This document shows, one piece after another, positions 39,673-64,000 of a stretch of 64,000 bases of DNA (position 1 is its first letter; each line of letters opens with the position of its first letter). The translations under genes and the position numbers were made by a program. Origin of the DNA: Pseudomonadota bacterium (lineage in GTDB: Bacteria > Myxococcota_A > UBA796 > UBA9615); NCBI GenBank assembly GCA_024229515.1, contig JAAESI010000340.1, positions 92,808 to 156,807 of the forward strand. The letters are read 5' to 3'. Under the pieces are notes generated by a model that was not told where the DNA came from, did not search any database, and worked only from the letters and a program-made list of their open reading frames with translations.

Positions 39673-39782
39673 ACCACCGGCGAGGGTCCCCGAAGCGCCT
39701 GCCTAGCCGCGCGCAACGCCCACCCTCGCCGCCAGCGTCCACGAAGCGCCTGCTTGCGGGGGCGGAACCGGGGGTCTGACTC

Positions 39783-58527: not shown

Positions 58528-61407
58528 TCAGTCGTCCTCCCCGACGACGCGCCGGAGCGCGAGCAGGCCGGGGTCGTCGGGGTCGAGGAGCTCGGCCTTG
58601 TCGAGGGCGCGGACGGCGAGCTCGGGCTGCTCGAGGGCGAGCCAGGCGCGGGCGAGGTTCACGAAGTGGTCGGGCTGGTCGGGGGCCCACACGATCGCGA
58701 GGTTCCCCAACTCGACGGCCCGTTGGGGGTCGTGGTGGACGTGCGACTCGGGGTGCCCGAGCACCCAGGCGTGGAGGCCGACGAGCGTGGCGCAGGGGCG
58801 GCGCAGGGTGCCCAGGTCGGACTCGACGGCGACGCGGCACTCGGTCACAAGGAGGTCGAGCTCACGGCGGGCGGAGGCGCGGCGCGCGCGTTCGAAGGCG
58901 GCGTAGGCGGCGAACCGGGCGGGCAGGTCGACGTCGGGGCGGATGGCCCGCCACTGCACGCGCCACTGCTCGTCGGTGAGGTACGGGTCCAGGTCGGTGA
59001 GCAGGTGCAGCTGGAAGCGGACGGTGTCCCAGGAGATCCGGTCCCAGTTGTCGTCGGCCTGCCACACCAGCGAGTCGACGAGCACGTCCACGCCGTCGGG
59101 GTCGCCGGCGGCGAGGAGGGCGCGGGCGGCGGCGCGGCGCACGGTGCGGTCGCGGTCGCTGAGGGCGGCGATCTTGATCCACTCGGGGAGCGGCTCGGCG
59201 AGGGTGGAGTCGGCGATGCGGGCGCGGTACTCGGCCTCCGCCGCCGCCCAGCGCTCGGCCGGATCGCCCTCGGGGTCGCCGGTCCCGGGGTCGGGGGGGA
59301 GCTCGGCGGGCACGGCCTCGCCGGACCAGGTGAACGGGCCGAAGCCGCCCTCGGGCCGCAGGGGGGCGTGGTCGAAGCCGGCGCGGCTGACGACGGTGTC
59401 GATGCCGGCGGCGCGGTCTTCGAAGAGCCAGGTGGCGTTGTCGGCGGCGTTGCCCCCGGGGCGGTTGATCGAGACGGCGTAGGTGTCGCTGCCGCCGAGG
59501 TCGGCCAGCAGCGCGGTGGCGCCGCGGTCGGGGCGGGCGGGAGGCACTGCGAACGCGATGCCGTCCCACAGGGCGACGTAGTGGTCGTCGCCGCCCTCGT
59601 CCACGAGCAGGCCGAGGGCGTGGGCGCGGCGGGCCCAGCCGATGCCTCCGCCGAGGTCGTTGGGGACCGCGTTGCCGGCCGGTTCCAGGCGGTAGGAGTC
59701 GGGCGCGTCGCCCTGGTCCCAGAGCACGCCGACGGAGCGGTCGACGGCGGCGCCGAGCACGGTGTTGGTGCCCTGGTAGGCGTCGGATCCGGCGCTGTCG
59801 ACGAGGATGCCGGCGGCGAGGTGCGAGGCGCTGCCCTGGGACCGGTACTCGGCGACGTAGCGGTCGGACCCGGCGCGGTCCAGGAGCATGCCCAGGGCGA
59901 GCATCTCGCCGCTGCCCTGGCCGTAGGCGCGAGCGTAGTAGCCGTCGTTGCCGTGGCGGTCGTACAGCAGGCCGACCCCGCCGTGCAGCGTCGCGTCGCC
60001 GACCCATGGGTACGGGCGGGTGCCGTAGGCGCCGCCCTGTCCGCCGCCGCCGTACAGGCCGAGGATGTCCTCGCCGGGGATGCCGAGGCGGACCTGGTCC
60101 GAGCCGAACAGATCGATGTAGGCGCCGAGGCCGCCGGTGGAGGCGAAGCCCTGCCCACGGCCGTGGACGACGGAGCGGTCGTCGCCGGAGCCGTCGACGA
60201 GCAGGCCGATGCCGAGCGTGCCGGCCCCCTGCGCGAAGCCGTTGGCGGAGCGGGCGTCGTCGCCCCCCTGGTCCCAGAGCACGCCGACGCCGAGGAAGCC
60301 GGCGCCCTGGCACTGGTAGGTGCAGAGGTAGTCGTCGGCGTCGCGGCCGGCGTCGATGAGGATGCCCACGCCGCCGTAGCCGGAGCCCTGGGTGTGGGGG
60401 GCGGTGGCGGTGTAGCGGTCCTTGCCGCCCAGATCGATGGCGACGCCCACGCGCGAGGGGAGGCCGACGTTGGAGCCGGCGCCGCCGGTGTACTCGTCGT
60501 TCCCGGCGGGGTCGATGAGGAGGAAGGCGTCGTTCCCGGCGTGCTTGTCGTCGCCGGTGCTGCCCACGATGAGGGCCCCCAGGGAGGTCTCGACGTACAG
60601 CAGCGGGCCGTTGGAGGCGGGCAGCTCGGCGGCGGCGAGGCGGGGGAGGATCGCTTCGATCTGGGCGAGCAGCTCGGAGGCGTGGGAGCGCATCCAGGGG
60701 TAGGAGAAGCGCTGGGCGAGCTCGAGGAACCCCAGCTGCACGCCGACGGGGTGGCTGCGCACGCGCAGCTCGGTGCCGAAGGAGCCGACGAAGAACGACT
60801 CCGCGGTGCGGCGGGGGGTCGGCATCTGACCGTCGGCGCCCCACCGGAGGTGGGCCTTGTAGATGTGCTTGCAGAGCTCATCGAGGGCGTCGCGGAAGTC
60901 GGCCGGGAGGTGGGCGCTGAGCACCTGGCCCTTCTCGGATTCGAACAGCTCGGACGGCTTGGGCAGCGGTGAGACGAAGGTCGAGGCCGGCGGCGGCAGC
61001 GGTGCGGCGGGGTCGGCGTCGCCGCCGGGCGCGACGGGCGTGAGGGCGTCGAGCAGGGCCGAGGGGCTCCCGATGCCGGGAAGCTCCGGCTTGCGGTAGC
61101 GCGTGCCGGGGTCGGGGAGCGGGCCCGCGGCGGCGTCGAGGGCGTCGCCGAGGCGGTTGGCAAACGGGGCCGCGGCGAGGGGACGCGCGAGCACCGAGTC
61201 GATGACCGGAGAGCTGGTGGGGACGAAGTAGCCGGCTTCCTCGGCTCGGGGGAGGGCGAGGCTCTCGAGGCTTCGGCTGGACAGGCGGAGGCCCCGCTCG
61301 ATGGGGGCCTCGCCGGGGGCCGGGTCGGGCGGCGGCGGCACCGGCTTGGGGCAGCCGAGCAGGAGCGCGAGGGCGGCGGCGCTACTCCAGGAACGGAGCG
61401 ATGGCAT
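58528..61407 (-). CDS. lipoprotein with ~12 G.L.D..G.D.Y solenoid-like repeats and HEAT/TPR-like tail
   Basis: MPSLRSWSSAAALALLLGC (lipobox). Repeat cores include FLLIDPAGNDEY, VAIDLGGKDRY, GLLVDGSGDD, GMLLDRAGSDRY, GILVDSAGSDAY and GLLVDEGGDDHY. Confidence 0.7.
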   Translation of the reverse strand: MPSLRSWSSAAALALLLGCPKPVPPPPDPAPGEAPIERGLRLSSRSLESLALPRAEEAGYFVPTSSPVIDSVLARPLAAAPFANRLGDALDAAAGPLPDPGTRYRKPELPGIGSPSALLDALTPVAPGGDADPAAPLPPPASTFVSPLPKPSELFESEKGQVLSAHLPADFRDALDELCKHIYKAHLRWGADGQMPTPRRTAESFFVGSFGTELRVRSHPVGVQLGFLELAQRFSYPWMRSHASELLAQIEAILPRLAAAELPASNGPLLYVETSLGALIVGSTGDDKHAGNDAFLLIDPAGNDEYTGGAGSNVGLPSRVGVAIDLGGKDRYTATAPHTQGSGYGGVGILIDAGRDADDYLCTYQCQGAGFLGVGVLWDQGGDDARSANGFAQGAGTLGIGLLVDGSGDDRSVVHGRGQGFASTGGLGAYIDLFGSDQVRLGIPGEDILGLYGGGGQGGAYGTRPYPWVGDATLHGGVGLLYDRHGNDGYYARAYGQGSGEMLALGMLLDRAGSDRYVAEYRSQGSASHLAAGILVDSAGSDAYQGTNTVLGAAVDRSVGVLWDQGDAPDSYRLEPAGNAVPNDLGGGIGWARRAHALGLLVDEGGDDHYVALWDGIAFAVPPARPDRGATALLADLGGSDTYAVSINRPGGNAADNATWLFEDRAAGIDTVVSRAGFDHAPLRPEGGFGPFTWSGEAVPAELPPDPGTGDPEGDPAERWAAAEAEYRARIADSTLAEPLPEWIKIAALSDRDRTVRRAAARALLAAGDPDGVDVLVDSLVWQADDNWDRISWDTVRFQLHLLTDLDPYLTDEQWRVQWRAIRPDVDLPARFAAYAAFERARRASARRELDLLVTECRVAVESDLGTLRRPCATLVGLHAWVLGHPESHVHHDPQRAVELGNLAIVWAPDQPDHFVNLARAWLALEQPELAVRALDKAELLDPDDPGLLALRRVVGEDD

Positions 61408-62011
61408 CCGTGACCTCCCGCCGGTGGATGAAGTCGGAGATGTAGTCGAGCTTCTCGGTGTTGATCTCGAGCGTCGGGCTCAGGTCCCACCGCGAGAACC
61501 AGTCCTCGTACAGCGTCTGAAGCTCCTTGAGGTACTTCAACGGGATGGCCTGCTCGTTGGCGCGACCGCGGGACTTGATGCGGCGGCGCACGGCGCGGAC
61601 GGAGCAGCGCAGGATGATGAGCAGATCGGGCGGCGCCAGCGCCTGGGTCATCGCCTCGTACAGGTGCGTGTAGGTGGCCCAGTCGCGATCGGACATGCGG
61701 CCCGACTGGTGCAGGCTCCGGGCGAAGATCTCGGCGTCCTCGTAGATGGTTCGGTCCTGGACGACGGTGGACGGCTCCTCCATCAGTTCCATGTGAAGCC
61801 GGAACTTGTGGGACAGGAAGCTGACCTGGGAGTGGAACGCCCAGGCGTTCATGTCGGCGTAGAAGTCGTCCAGATACGGGTTGAGGGCGTTGGGCTCCAT
61901 GAAGGGGCGGAAGCCGTACGTCTGGCACAGAAACTGGACCATGGTCGACTTGCCCGCGCCGATGTTTCCGGCGACGGCAATGAACTTGCGAGGCTTCGCG
62001 CCGGGGAGCAT
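61382..62011 (-). CDS. deoxynucleoside kinase family protein
   Basis: The ATG at 62011 gives MLPGAKPRKFIAVAGNIGAGKST (P-loop). The DRTIYED motif and the lid SVRAVRRRIKSRGR are present. The upstream part of ORF 61382..62209 only translates the repeat array. Confidence 0.85.
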   Translation of the reverse strand: MLPGAKPRKFIAVAGNIGAGKSTMVQFLCQTYGFRPFMEPNALNPYLDDFYADMNAWAFHSQVSFLSHKFRLHMELMEEPSTVVQDRTIYEDAEIFARSLHQSGRMSDRDWATYTHLYEAMTQALAPPDLLIILRCSVRAVRRRIKSRGRANEQAIPLKYLKELQTLYEDWFSRWDLSPTLEINTEKLDYISDFIHRREVTDAIAPFLE

Positions 62012-62066
62012 CGCGGGAGGGTAGCGCAGAGGGGTGTGGGGGGTCCTTGAGGAGGGAGCGGTCTGT

Positions 62067-62224
62067 GACCGCCAGAACGGGGCGAAACGAGTCGTTTCTC
62101 CTCCCGATGGCGAGGCCACACCGCCACAAACGGGGCGAAACGAACCGTTTCGCCCACCAGTGGCGGAGCCAAACCGCCACAAACCGGCCGAACGATTCGT
62201 TTCGCCCACCGGTGGCGGAAAGCC
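62067..62224. repeat. three head-to-tail 51-54 bp compound palindromes (REP/BIME-like)
   Basis: The units span 62067-62117, 62118-62170 and 62171-62224. The consensus is CCGCCACAAAC-GGGCGAAACG-aac-CGTTTCGCCC-ACCA-GTGGCGG, giving a 7-bp outer stem and a 10-bp inner stem. Confidence 0.9.
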
Positions 62225-62230
62225 GGGCCC

Positions 62231-63001
62231 CTACCTCCCAACTTCCCGCGCCCGGACCACCTGCCGCCACGCGGTCCTCAACGCCAGCTGCCCCTCAACC
62301 GCCCGAACCATCTCGATCTCTGGCTCCAGGCTCTTGAGTCGCTCGACCGAACGCGAACCGATGCCGATCGCAGTCGCAAGCGTCACCGCCGAGCCGTCCA
62401 CGATGTACACCGCCGCACACCGCGCCGCCCTCGCCCGCTCGTGCCTCGCATGCGCCGCGATGACACACGCAGCAGCCCCCACCGACGCTCGCAACACGCC
62501 GACGTCGAACGGCGCCACCGCTGGCATCACCGGCAGCTGCTCCAGCAGCCGTTCGCGCCCCACCCGCGGGAGGTACCGTCGCACGTTCCCGATCGTCCAC
62601 CCTCCCAGGGTCCGCCAACCGAGCAAGTCAGGCAGGTTCGAAGCCTCGAACAGGGGATCCAACTCGACCCCGTGGTGCTTCTCCTGCCCCAGGCAGTACC
62701 AGAAGAGGTTGCGCAGATGCCGCTGGTCCACAACCGGCTTGACGTACACCTCGGAGAACCCCACCCCGGGCTTCAGCCGATGCTGCAGCGAAATCTCGAC
62801 CCGCCGCCCCAACTCCCGGCCCGCGGGACCGTCGTTCATCGTGACCGCATGCAGGTGGTCGTCGACCAACCGGAACACGACGACCTCGAACGGCCGTCCC
62901 ACCGTCAGCATCGACTCCGCCACGTGACACCGCGCCGCCGCGTTGTTCGCGATCACCCGGCCGTCCTTCAACCGCATCATCAAGTGGGAACCCACCGCCA
63001 T
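62231..63001 (-). CDS. HUH/Y1 (IS200/RAYT-like, PF01797-like) transposase-like protein with C-terminal HTH
   Basis: FEVVVFRLVDDHLHAVT is the HUH block and RNLFWYCLGQEKHHG is the Tyr block (compare Y..NPV.HG). A candidate HTH is TLATAIGIGSRSVERL. The start is ATG 63001 or 62980. Confidence 0.55.
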   Translation of the reverse strand: MAVGSHLMMRLKDGRVIANNAAARCHVAESMLTVGRPFEVVVFRLVDDHLHAVTMNDGPAGRELGRRVEISLQHRLKPGVGFSEVYVKPVVDQRHLRNLFWYCLGQEKHHGVELDPLFEASNLPDLLGWRTLGGWTIGNVRRYLPRVGRERLLEQLPVMPAVAPFDVGVLRASVGAAACVIAAHARHERARAARCAAVYIVDGSAVTLATAIGIGSRSVERLKSLEPEIEMVRAVEGQLALRTAWRQVVRAREVGR

Positions 63002-63071
63002 CGCACACCTCCGCCCCCTCCCCTCGCAAGGGGGATGCCAGGGCCGAAACGGGGGACGCAGCGGGTGCCCA

Positions 63072-63129
63072 TCCGTGAGGTGTCCGTGAGTGTCGTCCGT
63101 GAGTGTCCGGTGCCCGGACACTCACGGAC
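63072..63129. repeat. TCCGTGAG tandem motifs ending in a perfect 16-bp/3-nt-loop hairpin
   Basis: TCCGTGAG begins at 63072, 63083 and 63096. GTCCGTGAGTGTCCGG (63095-63110), loop TGC, then CCGGACACTCACGGAC (63114-63129). Confidence 0.85.
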
Positions 63130-63157
63130 AGCGGCCGGCTGGTAGCCTTCGCAGTCG

Positions 63158-64000
63158 ATGTACACCGTCGCCAACCTCGGCCGCGTCTGCGACATGCTCG
63201 TCGCGGACGGCCTCATGCACGATGGCCAGGTCAAGGACGTGATGGTCCGCTACTCCATCCAGGAGAAGCGCATCCTCATCTCCAAGCGCGGCCAGATGCG
63301 CAAGCAGATGGGCCGGGTCAAGATCCCGTACCGCGTCGGCGAGATGGAGATCATCGCCTCGTTCAACTTCCCCCTCCCCAACAAGGAGGGGCAGAAGCTC
63401 ACCGAGCACATGATCACCGAGTGCGTCGCCCGCCACCTGTCGCTGGCGTACTTCATCCCCGACCCGATGAAGCTCGACTACAAGATGATCACGGATACGT
63501 TCCCGGGCTCGTTTGCCGAGCGGAACCTGATCATCCCGATCGCCAAGACGCGCAAGACCATCACCCTCGCCGTCGCCGATCCTTTCGACGAAGCCATGAT
63601 CGAGAACCTCCGCCGCTACACCGGCACCGAGGTCGACATGGTCCTGTCGCCCAAGACCGACCTCCTCAAGACCATCATGGAATTCCACGGCTTCAAGAAG
63701 TCCGTGGACCTGGCCGCCAAGGAGTTCGGCAAGAGCGGGCTGGACGAGCTGGGGAACCTCGAAGCGTTCTCCAAGATGAAGCGGCTGGAGGACATCGACG
63801 CCTCCGATCAGCCCGTCGTCCAGGCCGTCTGGTTCCTCTTCAACTATGCCTTCGACCAGCGCGCCTCCGACATCCACATCGAGCCCAAGCGGGAGACCAG
63901 CGAGGTCCGCCTCCGCATCGACGGCGTGCTCCACCGCATCCACGTCATGCCCCGCGCGGTGCACCGCGCCGTCATCTCCCGCATCAAGACCCTCGCGCGC
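63158..64000 (+). CDS. GspE/PilB-family secretion ATPase, N-terminal part (runs off window)
   Basis: My own translation from the ATG at 63158 gives MYTVANLGRVCDMLVADGLM..LAVADPFDEAMIENLRRYTG (T2SSE_N-like) and QRASDIHIEPKRETSEVRLRIDGVLH. The frame is open to 64000. ORF 63122..63964 on the minus strand is its shadow. Confidence 0.8.
   Translation, partial: MYTVANLGRVCDMLVADGLMHDGQVKDVMVRYSIQEKRILISKRGQMRKQMGRVKIPYRVGEMEIIASFNFPLPNKEGQKLTEHMITECVARHLSLAYFIPDPMKLDYKMITDTFPGSFAERNLIIPIAKTRKTITLAVADPFDEAMIENLRRYTGTEVDMVLSPKTDLLKTIMEFHGFKKSVDLAAKEFGKSGLDELGNLEAFSKMKRLEDIDASDQPVVQAVWFLFNYAFDQRASDIHIEPKRETSEVRLRIDGVLHRIHVMPRAVHRAVISRIKTLAR

Follow-up and report, generated by a model that had tools for sequence, protein, structure and literature searches.

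A tandem array of palindromic repeats beside a diverged HUH-Y1 nuclease-like gene in a myxobacterial genome: a probable REP/RAYT-like enzyme-repeat partnership of new design

The window, that is the whole 64,000-nucleotide stretch of DNA analysed here, carries near its end three head-to-tail palindromic repeats that lie beside a gene for a HUH-Y1 nuclease-like protein. This array is probably, at odds that we put at about 0.6, the 'home' copy of a small and partly decayed REP/BIME-like repeat subfamily belonging to the HUH-Y1 protein encoded 6 bp upstream. The best reading of the system is a REP/RAYT-like enzyme-repeat partnership of new design that is still partly insertion-sequence-like and in which the enzyme would act on the repeats. 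The protein fold, the catalytic residues, the pairing of gene and repeats, the intergenic dispersal of the repeats and presence/absence differences between genomes together fit such a partnership. In full-text searches of the literature, no description of a system of this type was found for myxobacteria.

The interval 62040-62230 consists of three head-to-tail units of about 52 bp (repeats, hairpins and the cassette are given without strand). Tandem Repeats Finder reported one array at 62068-62217 (C340:154875-155024) with a period of 53, 2.9 copies and 81% matches. The core GGCGAAACG-N3-CGTTTCGCC, with up to three mismatches, was matched exactly three times in the window, at 62081, 62134 and 62186, against a count of 0.12 in shuffles, none of the 100 shuffles reaching three. 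In the same way, the fold energy of the 191-nt array region was well below that of shuffles (z of -5.5 as RNA and -5.9 as DNA). Three independent public assemblies carry the array at 100% identity; in them, the 216-219-nt spacer matches base for base and an identical HUH-Y1 protein is encoded. The array is therefore no assembly artefact, and the three tandem repeats at 62067-62224 that a preliminary description had recognised are real and far above chance.

The units are unequally preserved. Unit 2 (62118-62170) is intact and contains a perfect 10-bp inverted repeat; it can form a compound hairpin of -19.6 kcal/mol as DNA (z of -5.6). Its half-sites are CCGCCAC at 62121-62127 and GTGGCGG at 62160-62166, its inner palindrome GGGCGAAACG-aac-CGTTTCGCCC lies at 62133-62155, and the whole is laid out as CCGCCAC-aaac-GGGGCGAAACG-aac-CGTTTCGCCC-acca-GTGGCGG. 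Unit 1 (62067-62117) is degenerate, reading CCGCCAG aac GGGGCGAAACG agt CGTTTCTCC ... GATGGCGAGG, and folds weakly (z of -1.6); its first 17 nt at the 5' side are identical to units found at C219:7673 and 7725. Unit 3 (62171-62224) has kept both outer halves around an imperfect inner stem CGGCCGAACG-att-CGTTTCGCCC, in the layout CCGCCAC-aaac-CGGCCGAACG-att-CGTTTCGCCC-accg-GTGGCGG (fold z of -1.3). A 7-bp outer and a 10-bp inner stem, at first attributed to every unit, thus hold for unit 2 alone. With two of the three units being degenerate hairpins, the array looks old or inactive as judged from its letters and may no longer be active.

Pairing is not confined to the interior of the units, as the outer-stem halves pair equally well across unit junctions. 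Such a junction hairpin, GTGGCGG-agccaaa-CCGCCAC, joins units 2 and 3 at 62160-62180 (DNA fold of -7.7 kcal/mol, z of -3.7). The pairing GTGGCGG-N6/7-CCGCCAC was found at the junctions of the window array and of C48/C216-type arrays, and GTTCC-N7-GGAAC at those of C57/C290-type arrays. The mosaic array C216 changes half-site type midway, and there all junction hairpins are intact and one within-unit outer stem is broken. Moreover, the 3' half-site is missing from the last unit in several arrays. Since long-range pairs dominate the minimum-energy fold of tripled consensus units and make it uninformative for hairpin counts, palindromes were scanned directly instead: at least one local hairpin per unit was present in 46 of the 50 arrays against 39% in shuffles, and two per unit in 14 of the 50 against 5% of shuffles. 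The junction pairing in C216 and this palindrome scan favour a description in which the module comprises two alternating hairpins about 26 bp apart, which is better than that of a single compound hairpin. As to a GT[AG]G foot, the GTGGCGG half-site of the window and of C48/C216-type units begins with GTGG, and other subfamilies have GAGCGC, GTTCC or CGCTGAC in its place, so that no foot common to the whole family is apparent.

On the other side of the array lies the dNK gene (61382-62014, minus strand; Pfam dNK, E of 1.8e-51), whose ortholog in a sister genome of the same genus (G001) is 88% identical. Both the Pfam match and this ortholog start at the ATG at 62014, which confirms that the GETNRFA..WR repeats in the open reading frame 61382-62209 are a spurious extension created by the array. 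The array was thought to fill the entire gap between the two minus-strand genes; in fact, the 52 nt at 62015-62066 stay outside it. A small terminal hairpin with 6-bp arms, GCGGTC-TGT-GACCGC, was detected there by the inverted-repeat scan at 62058-62072 (DNA fold of -5.5 kcal/mol, z of -5.0), its right arm overlapping the first CCGCCAG half-site of unit 1.

The neighbouring gene (62231-63001, minus strand) encodes a HUH-Y1 nuclease-like protein of 256 residues with a C-terminal helix-turn-helix; the ATG at 63001 is its likely start within a listed open reading frame that extends to 63121. The array begins 6 bp after its stop codon and upstream of the dNK gene on the same strand. Sequence profiles fail to detect the Y1 core, and the identification as a Y1 transposase is not supported at that level. 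Pfam and NCBIfam scans of the window protein gave no match even at E of 10, and Y1_Tnp (PF01797) matched neither this protein at E of 10 nor any of 51 relatives at E of 0.1 (0/51). A six-frame PF01797 search of the genome recovered none of the nine family copies and a single other weak locus, and when PDB sequences were searched with profiles built from 8 or 51 relatives, weak helix-turn-helix matches alone and no Y1 match came back.

The AlphaFold2 model of the protein, built on an alignment of paralogs, reached a pLDDT of 92.8 and a pTM of 0.90. Its best Foldseek match in the PDB was 4er8_A, the E. coli RAYT with a REP hairpin (E of 4.9e-4, TM of 0.58 on the target, rmsd of 3.5 over 130 columns), followed by the IS200, IS608 and ISDra2 TnpA transposases. 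In the alignment of the window protein with its eight paralogs, H49 and H51 (in 'D-x-H-x-H-A'), Y102 and H110 are invariant, Q or N stands four residues after Y102, and much of the 'DPLFEASNLPDLLGMRTLG' segment is also invariant; a conserved middle segment reads 'DPLFEASNLPDLLGMR'. Among 51 relatives of 30-48% identity, H49, H51, Y102 and H110 are again invariant and Q106 is conserved in at least 90%. Weak C-terminal matches to HTH_23 were seen in 26 of the 51 and to HTH_28 in 6, the Y1 core being seen by fold and not by profile. The invariance or near-invariance of the HUH, Tyr and Gln residues argues for retained catalysis. Fold and catalytic motifs thus support the neighbour as a HUH-Y1 protein, and the model suggests that it is related, at great divergence, to the RAYT/IS200 single-strand DNA transposases and carries a helix-turn-helix in addition.

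The family is restricted in its taxonomic spread to one class of the phylum; of the 201 sampled genomes, 17 contained it, with 1-11 matches each. A word-seeded search listed 28 clusters at 90% identity, all unnamed and devoid of Pfam domains, and a profile search gave 1,189 representative clusters at 50% identity. A scan of public genomes found nothing with the single protein and 14 loci with the family alignment, all in uncultured metagenome-assembled genomes and most of them labelled 'Rickettsiales' or 'Enterobacterales', one Myxococcota; these record names are unreliable. No homolog was found in plasmid and phage collections.

Within the 8-Mb genome, tblastn identified eight paralogs with 30-49% identity to the window protein, one of them frameshifted, for a total of nine copies. 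The paralogs are 30-56% identical among themselves and none are near-identical. Every one of the nine copies has a tandem array of 2-9 units within 6-404 bp, which cannot be due to chance because the roughly 50 arrays of the genome cover about 0.1% of its 8 Mb. Clustering of the arrays yielded subfamilies that match the paralogs: most paralogs have a subfamily of their own, the arrays of C15 and C38 fall in one large cluster, and no paralog corresponds to four arrays whose core is GGAGAC...GTCTCC. The similarity of the proteins correlates weakly but significantly with that of their repeats (Spearman 0.17, permutation p of 0.02 in a Mantel-type test), and proteins that are 70% identical may carry clearly different repeats. 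Gene and array do not have the same relative orientation at the window locus as at the C57 copy. Family members from other genera often have an array on each side of the gene, the two running in the same direction; the period there is again 50-53 bp, and the sequences are unrelated. At least 14 of the 95 matches listed in related genomes sit within 300 bp of a contig start, as expected if flanking repeats break assemblies.

A genome-wide tandem-repeat census counted about 50 non-coding arrays comprising some 180 units with a period of 50-53 bp, and profile searches added at least 15 solitary units, one of which lies inside the window near 39712-39759. None of the arrays was found inside a long coding-type open reading frame. 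Of 41 arrays, 24 lie between convergent genes, against 25% expected (binomial p of 5e-6), and arrays as well as single units are mostly situated at gene 3' ends, just after stop codons. The genome-wide pattern search gave no wide dispersal of the exact repeat: its core occurs in the window only, and the window subfamily amounts to five units at two loci, namely the three described above and two related tandem units at C219:7673-7764. Arrays C48, C216, C112 and C290, as well as the one beside the C57 paralog, also share the outer half-sites and the 5' portion of the window unit. Abundance was also assessed from flanking 16-mers in the manner of Bertels et al. (PMC5581495); the top repeat-derived 16-mers occur 7-20 times even in better-populated subfamilies, the counts being contaminated by coding repeats in three loci; 16-mer copy numbers in the flanks of classical RAYT genes are far above this range (PMC5581495).

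Comparison with relatives bears on the mobility of the locus. The dNK gene and the pilB-like secretion ATPase gene (63158-64000, plus strand; Pfam MshEN and T2SSE; 96% identical in the sister genome) enclose in the window a 1,110-bp cassette at 62027-63136, made up of the 3' hairpin array, the HUH-Y1/HTH gene, a sigma-54-type promoter and a 16-bp hairpin. The start of the dNK gene is 12 bp from the cassette boundary, and the pilB-like gene runs off the end of the window. In the sister genome, BLASTN of the dNK/pilB-like junction gave a contiguous match where the window has 62027-63136, with flank identity of 83-94% that places the junction to less than base resolution, and tblastn located the two genes 35 bp apart. 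In four more relatives, dNK has another neighbour on its upstream side, and neither the HUH gene nor an array is there, so that all five relatives examined lack both at this position. The contiguous site in the sister genome and the four relatives devoid of gene and array favour an insertion, and its occurrence in the lineage of the window after the split from the sister genome would be the simplest reading. The HUH gene and its array accordingly appear, from this alignment of loci, to have come together as one 1.1-kb insertion.

The two ends of the cassette each carry a hairpin, and these are unrelated in sequence. At the upstream end, a perfect 16-bp inverted repeat, GTCCGTGAGTGTCCGG-tgc-CCGGACACTCACGGAC, at 63095-63129 (DNA fold of -20.2 kcal/mol, z of -8.9) sits 7 nt inside the boundary; the array-side hairpin sits 31 nt inside the other. 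Similar TCCGTGAG/GTCCGG repeats were observed upstream of other family members. Other loci of the genome also differ from the sister genome. The orphan array C216 is absent from the collinear site there; at C15, the upstream array is absent and the gene with its downstream array is absent as a separate block; at C38, the array and the open reading frame are absent and the promoter and 5' leader are retained. The C47 copy has an upstream flank in common with a sister-genome copy to which it is only 56% identical. The concatenated-flank search on which these comparisons rely was partly swamped by acidic coding repeats, so that only some of the loci were resolved.

The putative promoter of the HUH-Y1 gene is a sigma-54-type -24/-12 box, TGGCAT-CCCCC-TTGC, at 63026-63040 on the minus strand, 23 nt upstream of the ATG, to which a promoter function is ascribed from its sequence. 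A first sigma-54 score was non-specific, 39% of shuffles passing it, and was replaced by a stricter pattern: GGCAY-N5-[CTG]TGC boxes occur 12-102 nt upstream of 9 of the 36 family members against 0.11 expected (p of 2.5e-15). Such promoters suggest an enhancer-dependent control of the putative activity. The interval 61300-63400 yielded neither a sigma-70 promoter nor a T-tailed terminator. Upstream of the sigma-54-type boxes of the family are direct and inverted repeats of GTCCG type. A loose search for CTCACGGAC lacked specificity (3,678 matches); a paired GGACGATCCCGGAC motif was found at 16 loci, only three of which are beside paralogs, and the arrangement hints at a common enhancer-binding regulator of these loci.

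How the REP/RAYT-like partnership might work is proposed here by analogy, for binding and cleavage as well as for the route of spread, and the model of action on single-strand hairpins is borrowed from passages on E. coli TnpA-REP and IS608 in the published accounts (PMC3479197, PMC6006769). In single-stranded DNA, for instance at a replication fork, the palindromes of the units would fold into hairpins. The HUH domain would recognise its cognate hairpin together with adjacent bases, cut with Tyr102 and rejoin the ends, by which units would be copied or moved. Head-to-tail arrays could then grow through repeated insertion beside an existing unit, or through slippage, and the helix-turn-helix may add recognition of double-stranded palindromes. 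In the window, gene, promoter region and array would have entered the dNK/pilB-like junction as one 1.1-kb cassette, the enzyme gene still travelling with its repeats.

A bolder version of this partnership is possible, and we hold it tentatively and would not bet on it. It sees in the family an undescribed, class-wide HUH-Y1 branch that numbers at least 1,000 unannotated clusters (50% identity) and in which nuclease gene, sigma-54-controlled promoter and a five-turn, two-hairpin module of about 51 bp would be co-mobile as a cassette. Such a branch would be a living intermediate between IS200-type insertion sequences and domesticated REPtrons; each paralog would seed and maintain a private repeat family, and the period would reflect a phased protein-DNA filament.

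Among the other explanations, the one that survives best is unlikely by our estimate and holds that the cassette is an autonomous IS200/IS605-like insertion sequence, with the 16-bp hairpin and the array as its ends, a true transposase moving the whole unit and the gene-less arrays being PATE/MITE-like derivatives. It overlaps the preferred reading and differs from it only in what is mobile. The clean presence/absence of 1,110 bp relative to the sister genome, with one hairpin 7 nt within the first boundary and another 31 nt within the second, the outgroups without the cassette and the absence as a block, in the sister genome, of the C15 gene and its downstream array all fit this view, as do the conserved catalytic residues and a Y-x-x-x-Q spacing resembling that of IS608 (Y127/Q131). 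Active insertion sequences, however, leave near-identical copies, and here no closely related copies exist, the paralogs being 30-56% identical. Moreover, the hairpins at the two ends have unrelated sequences, the motif of the upstream hairpin occurs in paralogs with different arrays and is better accounted for by a common regulator, the C38 site of the sister genome retains promoter and 5' leader without the open reading frame, and plasmids and phages yielded no homologs.

We consider it quite improbable that the arrays are phased double-stranded, operator- or iteron-like sites for the helix-turn-helix, on which a nucleoprotein structure would form and serve autoregulation, insulation or the organisation of the chromosome, with little or no role of the HUH domain in their spread. 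The sequence turns over between subfamilies and between genera, yet a period of 50-53 bp, about five helical turns, is maintained; each unit has one or two short palindromes of the kind bound by dimeric helix-turn-helix proteins, and the C-terminal helix-turn-helix occurs throughout the family. Nevertheless, invariant or nearly invariant HUH, Tyr and Gln residues speak against this explanation, the best structural match is an enzyme-hairpin complex, and some means of copying is needed to explain why one subfamily has arrays and single units at many unrelated loci, mostly at the 3' ends of genes. Both this explanation and the insertion-sequence one are compatible with parts of the main reading.

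Less probable still is that the hairpins act chiefly as RNA between dNK and the HUH gene, where they would be a terminator, an insulator or a stabiliser of 3' ends, the link with HUH being incidental or secondary. The start of the array 6 nt after a stop codon and upstream of the same-strand dNK gene, its strong predicted RNA structure (z of -5.5) and the position of arrays elsewhere, just after stop codons and often between convergent genes, would suit such a role, and secondary RNA-level roles of this kind are described for classical REPs in parts of the literature on them (PMC3479197). Against it, there is no T-run terminator and no Rfam family: the Rfam scan returned sub-threshold matches to miRNA-like hairpins alone, at 20-24 bits compared with gathering scores of 58-137, and the terminator and small-RNA readings offered at first sight gain no positive support. 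Two of the three units are weak hairpins, and an RNA role leaves both the protein fold and the distinct repeat type of each of the nine paralogs unexplained. Finally, a local tandem duplication without function, to which the confinement of the exact core to the window and the decay of units 1 and 3 could be ascribed, is disfavoured by the genome-wide census, with the same architecture and period at about 50 loci, beside all paralogs and in several genera, and has hardly any probability left.

The REP/RAYT-like reading bears on the question of how a selfish IS200-like element turns into a 'domesticated' gene, present in single copy and in charge of a population of repeats. The evidence for joint insertion suggests that a gene and its repeats are still able to move into one site jointly, in a protein family that is invisible to current domain libraries. 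With up to 11 diverged enzyme-repeat pairs per genome, the family offers natural specificity variants for hairpin recognition. In practical terms, the arrays break short-read assemblies and make spurious open reading frame extensions, such as the false N-terminus of dNK.

REP/RAYT systems are known mainly from Proteobacteria. The REP/BIME-REPtron situation that the preliminary description had proposed for this array is supported in part by the HUH-Y1 fold, by the array beside each of the nine paralogs and by the related arrays and single units scattered intergenically; it is weakened by the lack of dispersal of the exact repeat, the absence of a Y1_Tnp match, copy numbers far under those of classical REPs and the apparent joint 1.1-kb insertion. 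REPtrons, in which a RAYT/TnpA-REP is associated with REP, BIME or REPIN elements (E. coli YafM/RayT, 4er8, as well as Pseudomonas and Stenotrophomonas), provide the top structural match to the HUH-Y1 fold found here. They likewise place the gene beside its own palindromic repeats, one repeat family per gene copy, each tnpA-REP having its own REP family (PMC6006769), and their repeats are extragenic, lie mostly at the 3' ends of genes and occur singly or in clusters. In contrast, the present family gives no Y1_Tnp match, and its proteins exceed RAYT in length by about 100 residues, having a conserved middle segment and a helix-turn-helix at the C-terminus. It has nine paralogs per genome instead of about one, and direct tandem modules of 50-53 bp that often contain two different hairpins, whereas REPs are inverted pairs. 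The repeat copy number is in the tens and not in the hundreds, and no family-wide GT[AG]G foot is apparent. Moreover, classical REPtrons are said not to insert gene and repeats jointly (PMC6006769).

Among published kinds, a Y1 nuclease followed by a C-terminal helix-turn-helix (HTH_23, HTH_28 or Bac_DnaA_C) characterises TnpA-Y1 subclass 2.1 and the TIRYT/TIRtron group (Di Nocera 2013, PMC3733652; Quentin 2018, PMC6006769), a combination that the present protein resembles by its fold and by the weak HTH_23/HTH_28 matches of its relatives. TIRYT genes occur as several distinct copies per genome, and their flanking repeat families are moderately abundant, in dimers or clusters (PMC3733652); the several gene copies with flanking repeat families found here are similar. 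The TIRYT motif GGGGWSAS was also observed once per unit in the sister arrays of C57 type. However, it is limited to C57-type arrays, the window units reading GGGGCGAA at the motif position. TIRYTs were found with Y1_Tnp-type profiles, unlike the present family, and they are flanked by terminal inverted repeats, many with GGGGWSAS, whereas the arrays here are head-to-tail and have the same orientation on both sides where both exist. No REP-like sequences were reported near subclass 2.1 genes by Quentin et al. (PMC6006769).

The IS200/IS605 elements, with the TnpA of IS608 and ISDra2, resemble the system by the HUH-Y1 fold, the Y-x-x-x-Q/N spacing, hairpins near both ends of a unit of about 1 kb and a clean empty site in a relative. 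Elements of this group carry related subterminal hairpins at their two ends and insert, without duplication, beside a fixed tetra- or pentanucleotide. They differ from the present system in that near-identical copies are lacking here and the hairpins near the cassette ends have nothing in common in sequence; the protein has double the size and a helix-turn-helix, and tandem arrays take the place of single subterminal hairpins. TnpA-Y1 class 3, for instance in Solibacter usitatus, is described as intermediate between insertion sequence and REPtron, with several related genes per genome and atypical multicopy flanking secondary structures (PMC6006769). The several related genes per genome and the flanking structures in many copies are common to both, but class 3 proteins are retrieved by Y1 profiles and have a CnGA foot and about 600 copies (Quentin et al. 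2018), and neither a tandem 51-bp module nor a helix-turn-helix is reported for them. All the RAYT classifications compared here depend on Y1_Tnp-type profiles. The system departs from REP/RAYT in sequence, architecture, gene copy number, repeat design, repeat abundance and the apparent joint mobility of gene and array, and it would be an undescribed myxobacterial relative of REP/RAYT.

Upstream of the HUH-Y1 nuclease-like gene of the window, whose likely start is the ATG at 63001, a sequence pattern of the sigma-54-type -24/-12 box is found on the minus strand at 63026-63040. Such boxes precede about one quarter of the family members (9 of 36, as compared with 0.11 expected), including those at the loci L007, L008, L013, L023, L025 and L027 of related genomes, which suggests that expression of the HUH nuclease genes is enhancer-dependent. 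Also upstream, at 63095-63129, lies a perfect 16-bp inverted repeat made up of TCCGTGAG/GTCCGG motifs, and related motifs were also observed upstream of paralogs whose 3' hairpin arrays differ. Two public contigs carrying the window gene stop within this hairpin, 110-120 nt upstream of the ATG. Pairs of the GGACGATCCCGGAC motif, spaced by about 34 bp, were found at 16 loci of the genome (among them C133:7289, C134:2497, C222:2630, C226:23240, C242:184067, C325:51232 and C56:926), only three of which are upstream of HUH paralogs; these paired motifs may be binding sites for one regulator.

The HUH copy at C47:112644-113411 and its counterpart L002 in the sister genome (G001:C147) have a common upstream flank. 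Nevertheless, they are only 56% identical, with a rough dN/dS of 0.48, while the neighbouring housekeeping genes are 88-96% identical; either these copies have evolved very rapidly, or the same site has been occupied more than once. At another site, the region C38:130700-132200 has a syntenic counterpart in the sister genome (L056, G001:C1:75200-76300) that retains the upstream repeats, the sigma-54-type box and the 5' leader but, compared with the C38 site, is devoid of the HUH ORF and of the upstream array.

A solitary unit of another repeat subfamily, the C15/C38 type, is present in the window at 39712-39759 (CCCTCGCCGCCAG...GAAGCGCCTGC; nhmmer E 7.8e-5). Orphan arrays at C273:2023, C291:13882, C321:15783 and C60:10066 combine an inner hairpin, GGAGAC...GTCTCC, with a second one, CGCTGAC...GTCAGCG, and for these four arrays no HUH paralog was found in the assembly.

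Several related metagenome-assembled records (L031-L038 and L040-L044) are entitled 'uncultured Rickettsiales' or 'Enterobacterales'. These names look unreliable because the underlying genomes, of 7-8 Mb and about 70% G+C with type IV pilus genes, do not fit them.

Finally, the Y1_Tnp Pfam cut-off was reached at a single locus of the genome, C303:39945-40169 (25.3 bits), located in a 314-aa open frame, which may be a canonical RAYT/TIRYT-type gene.
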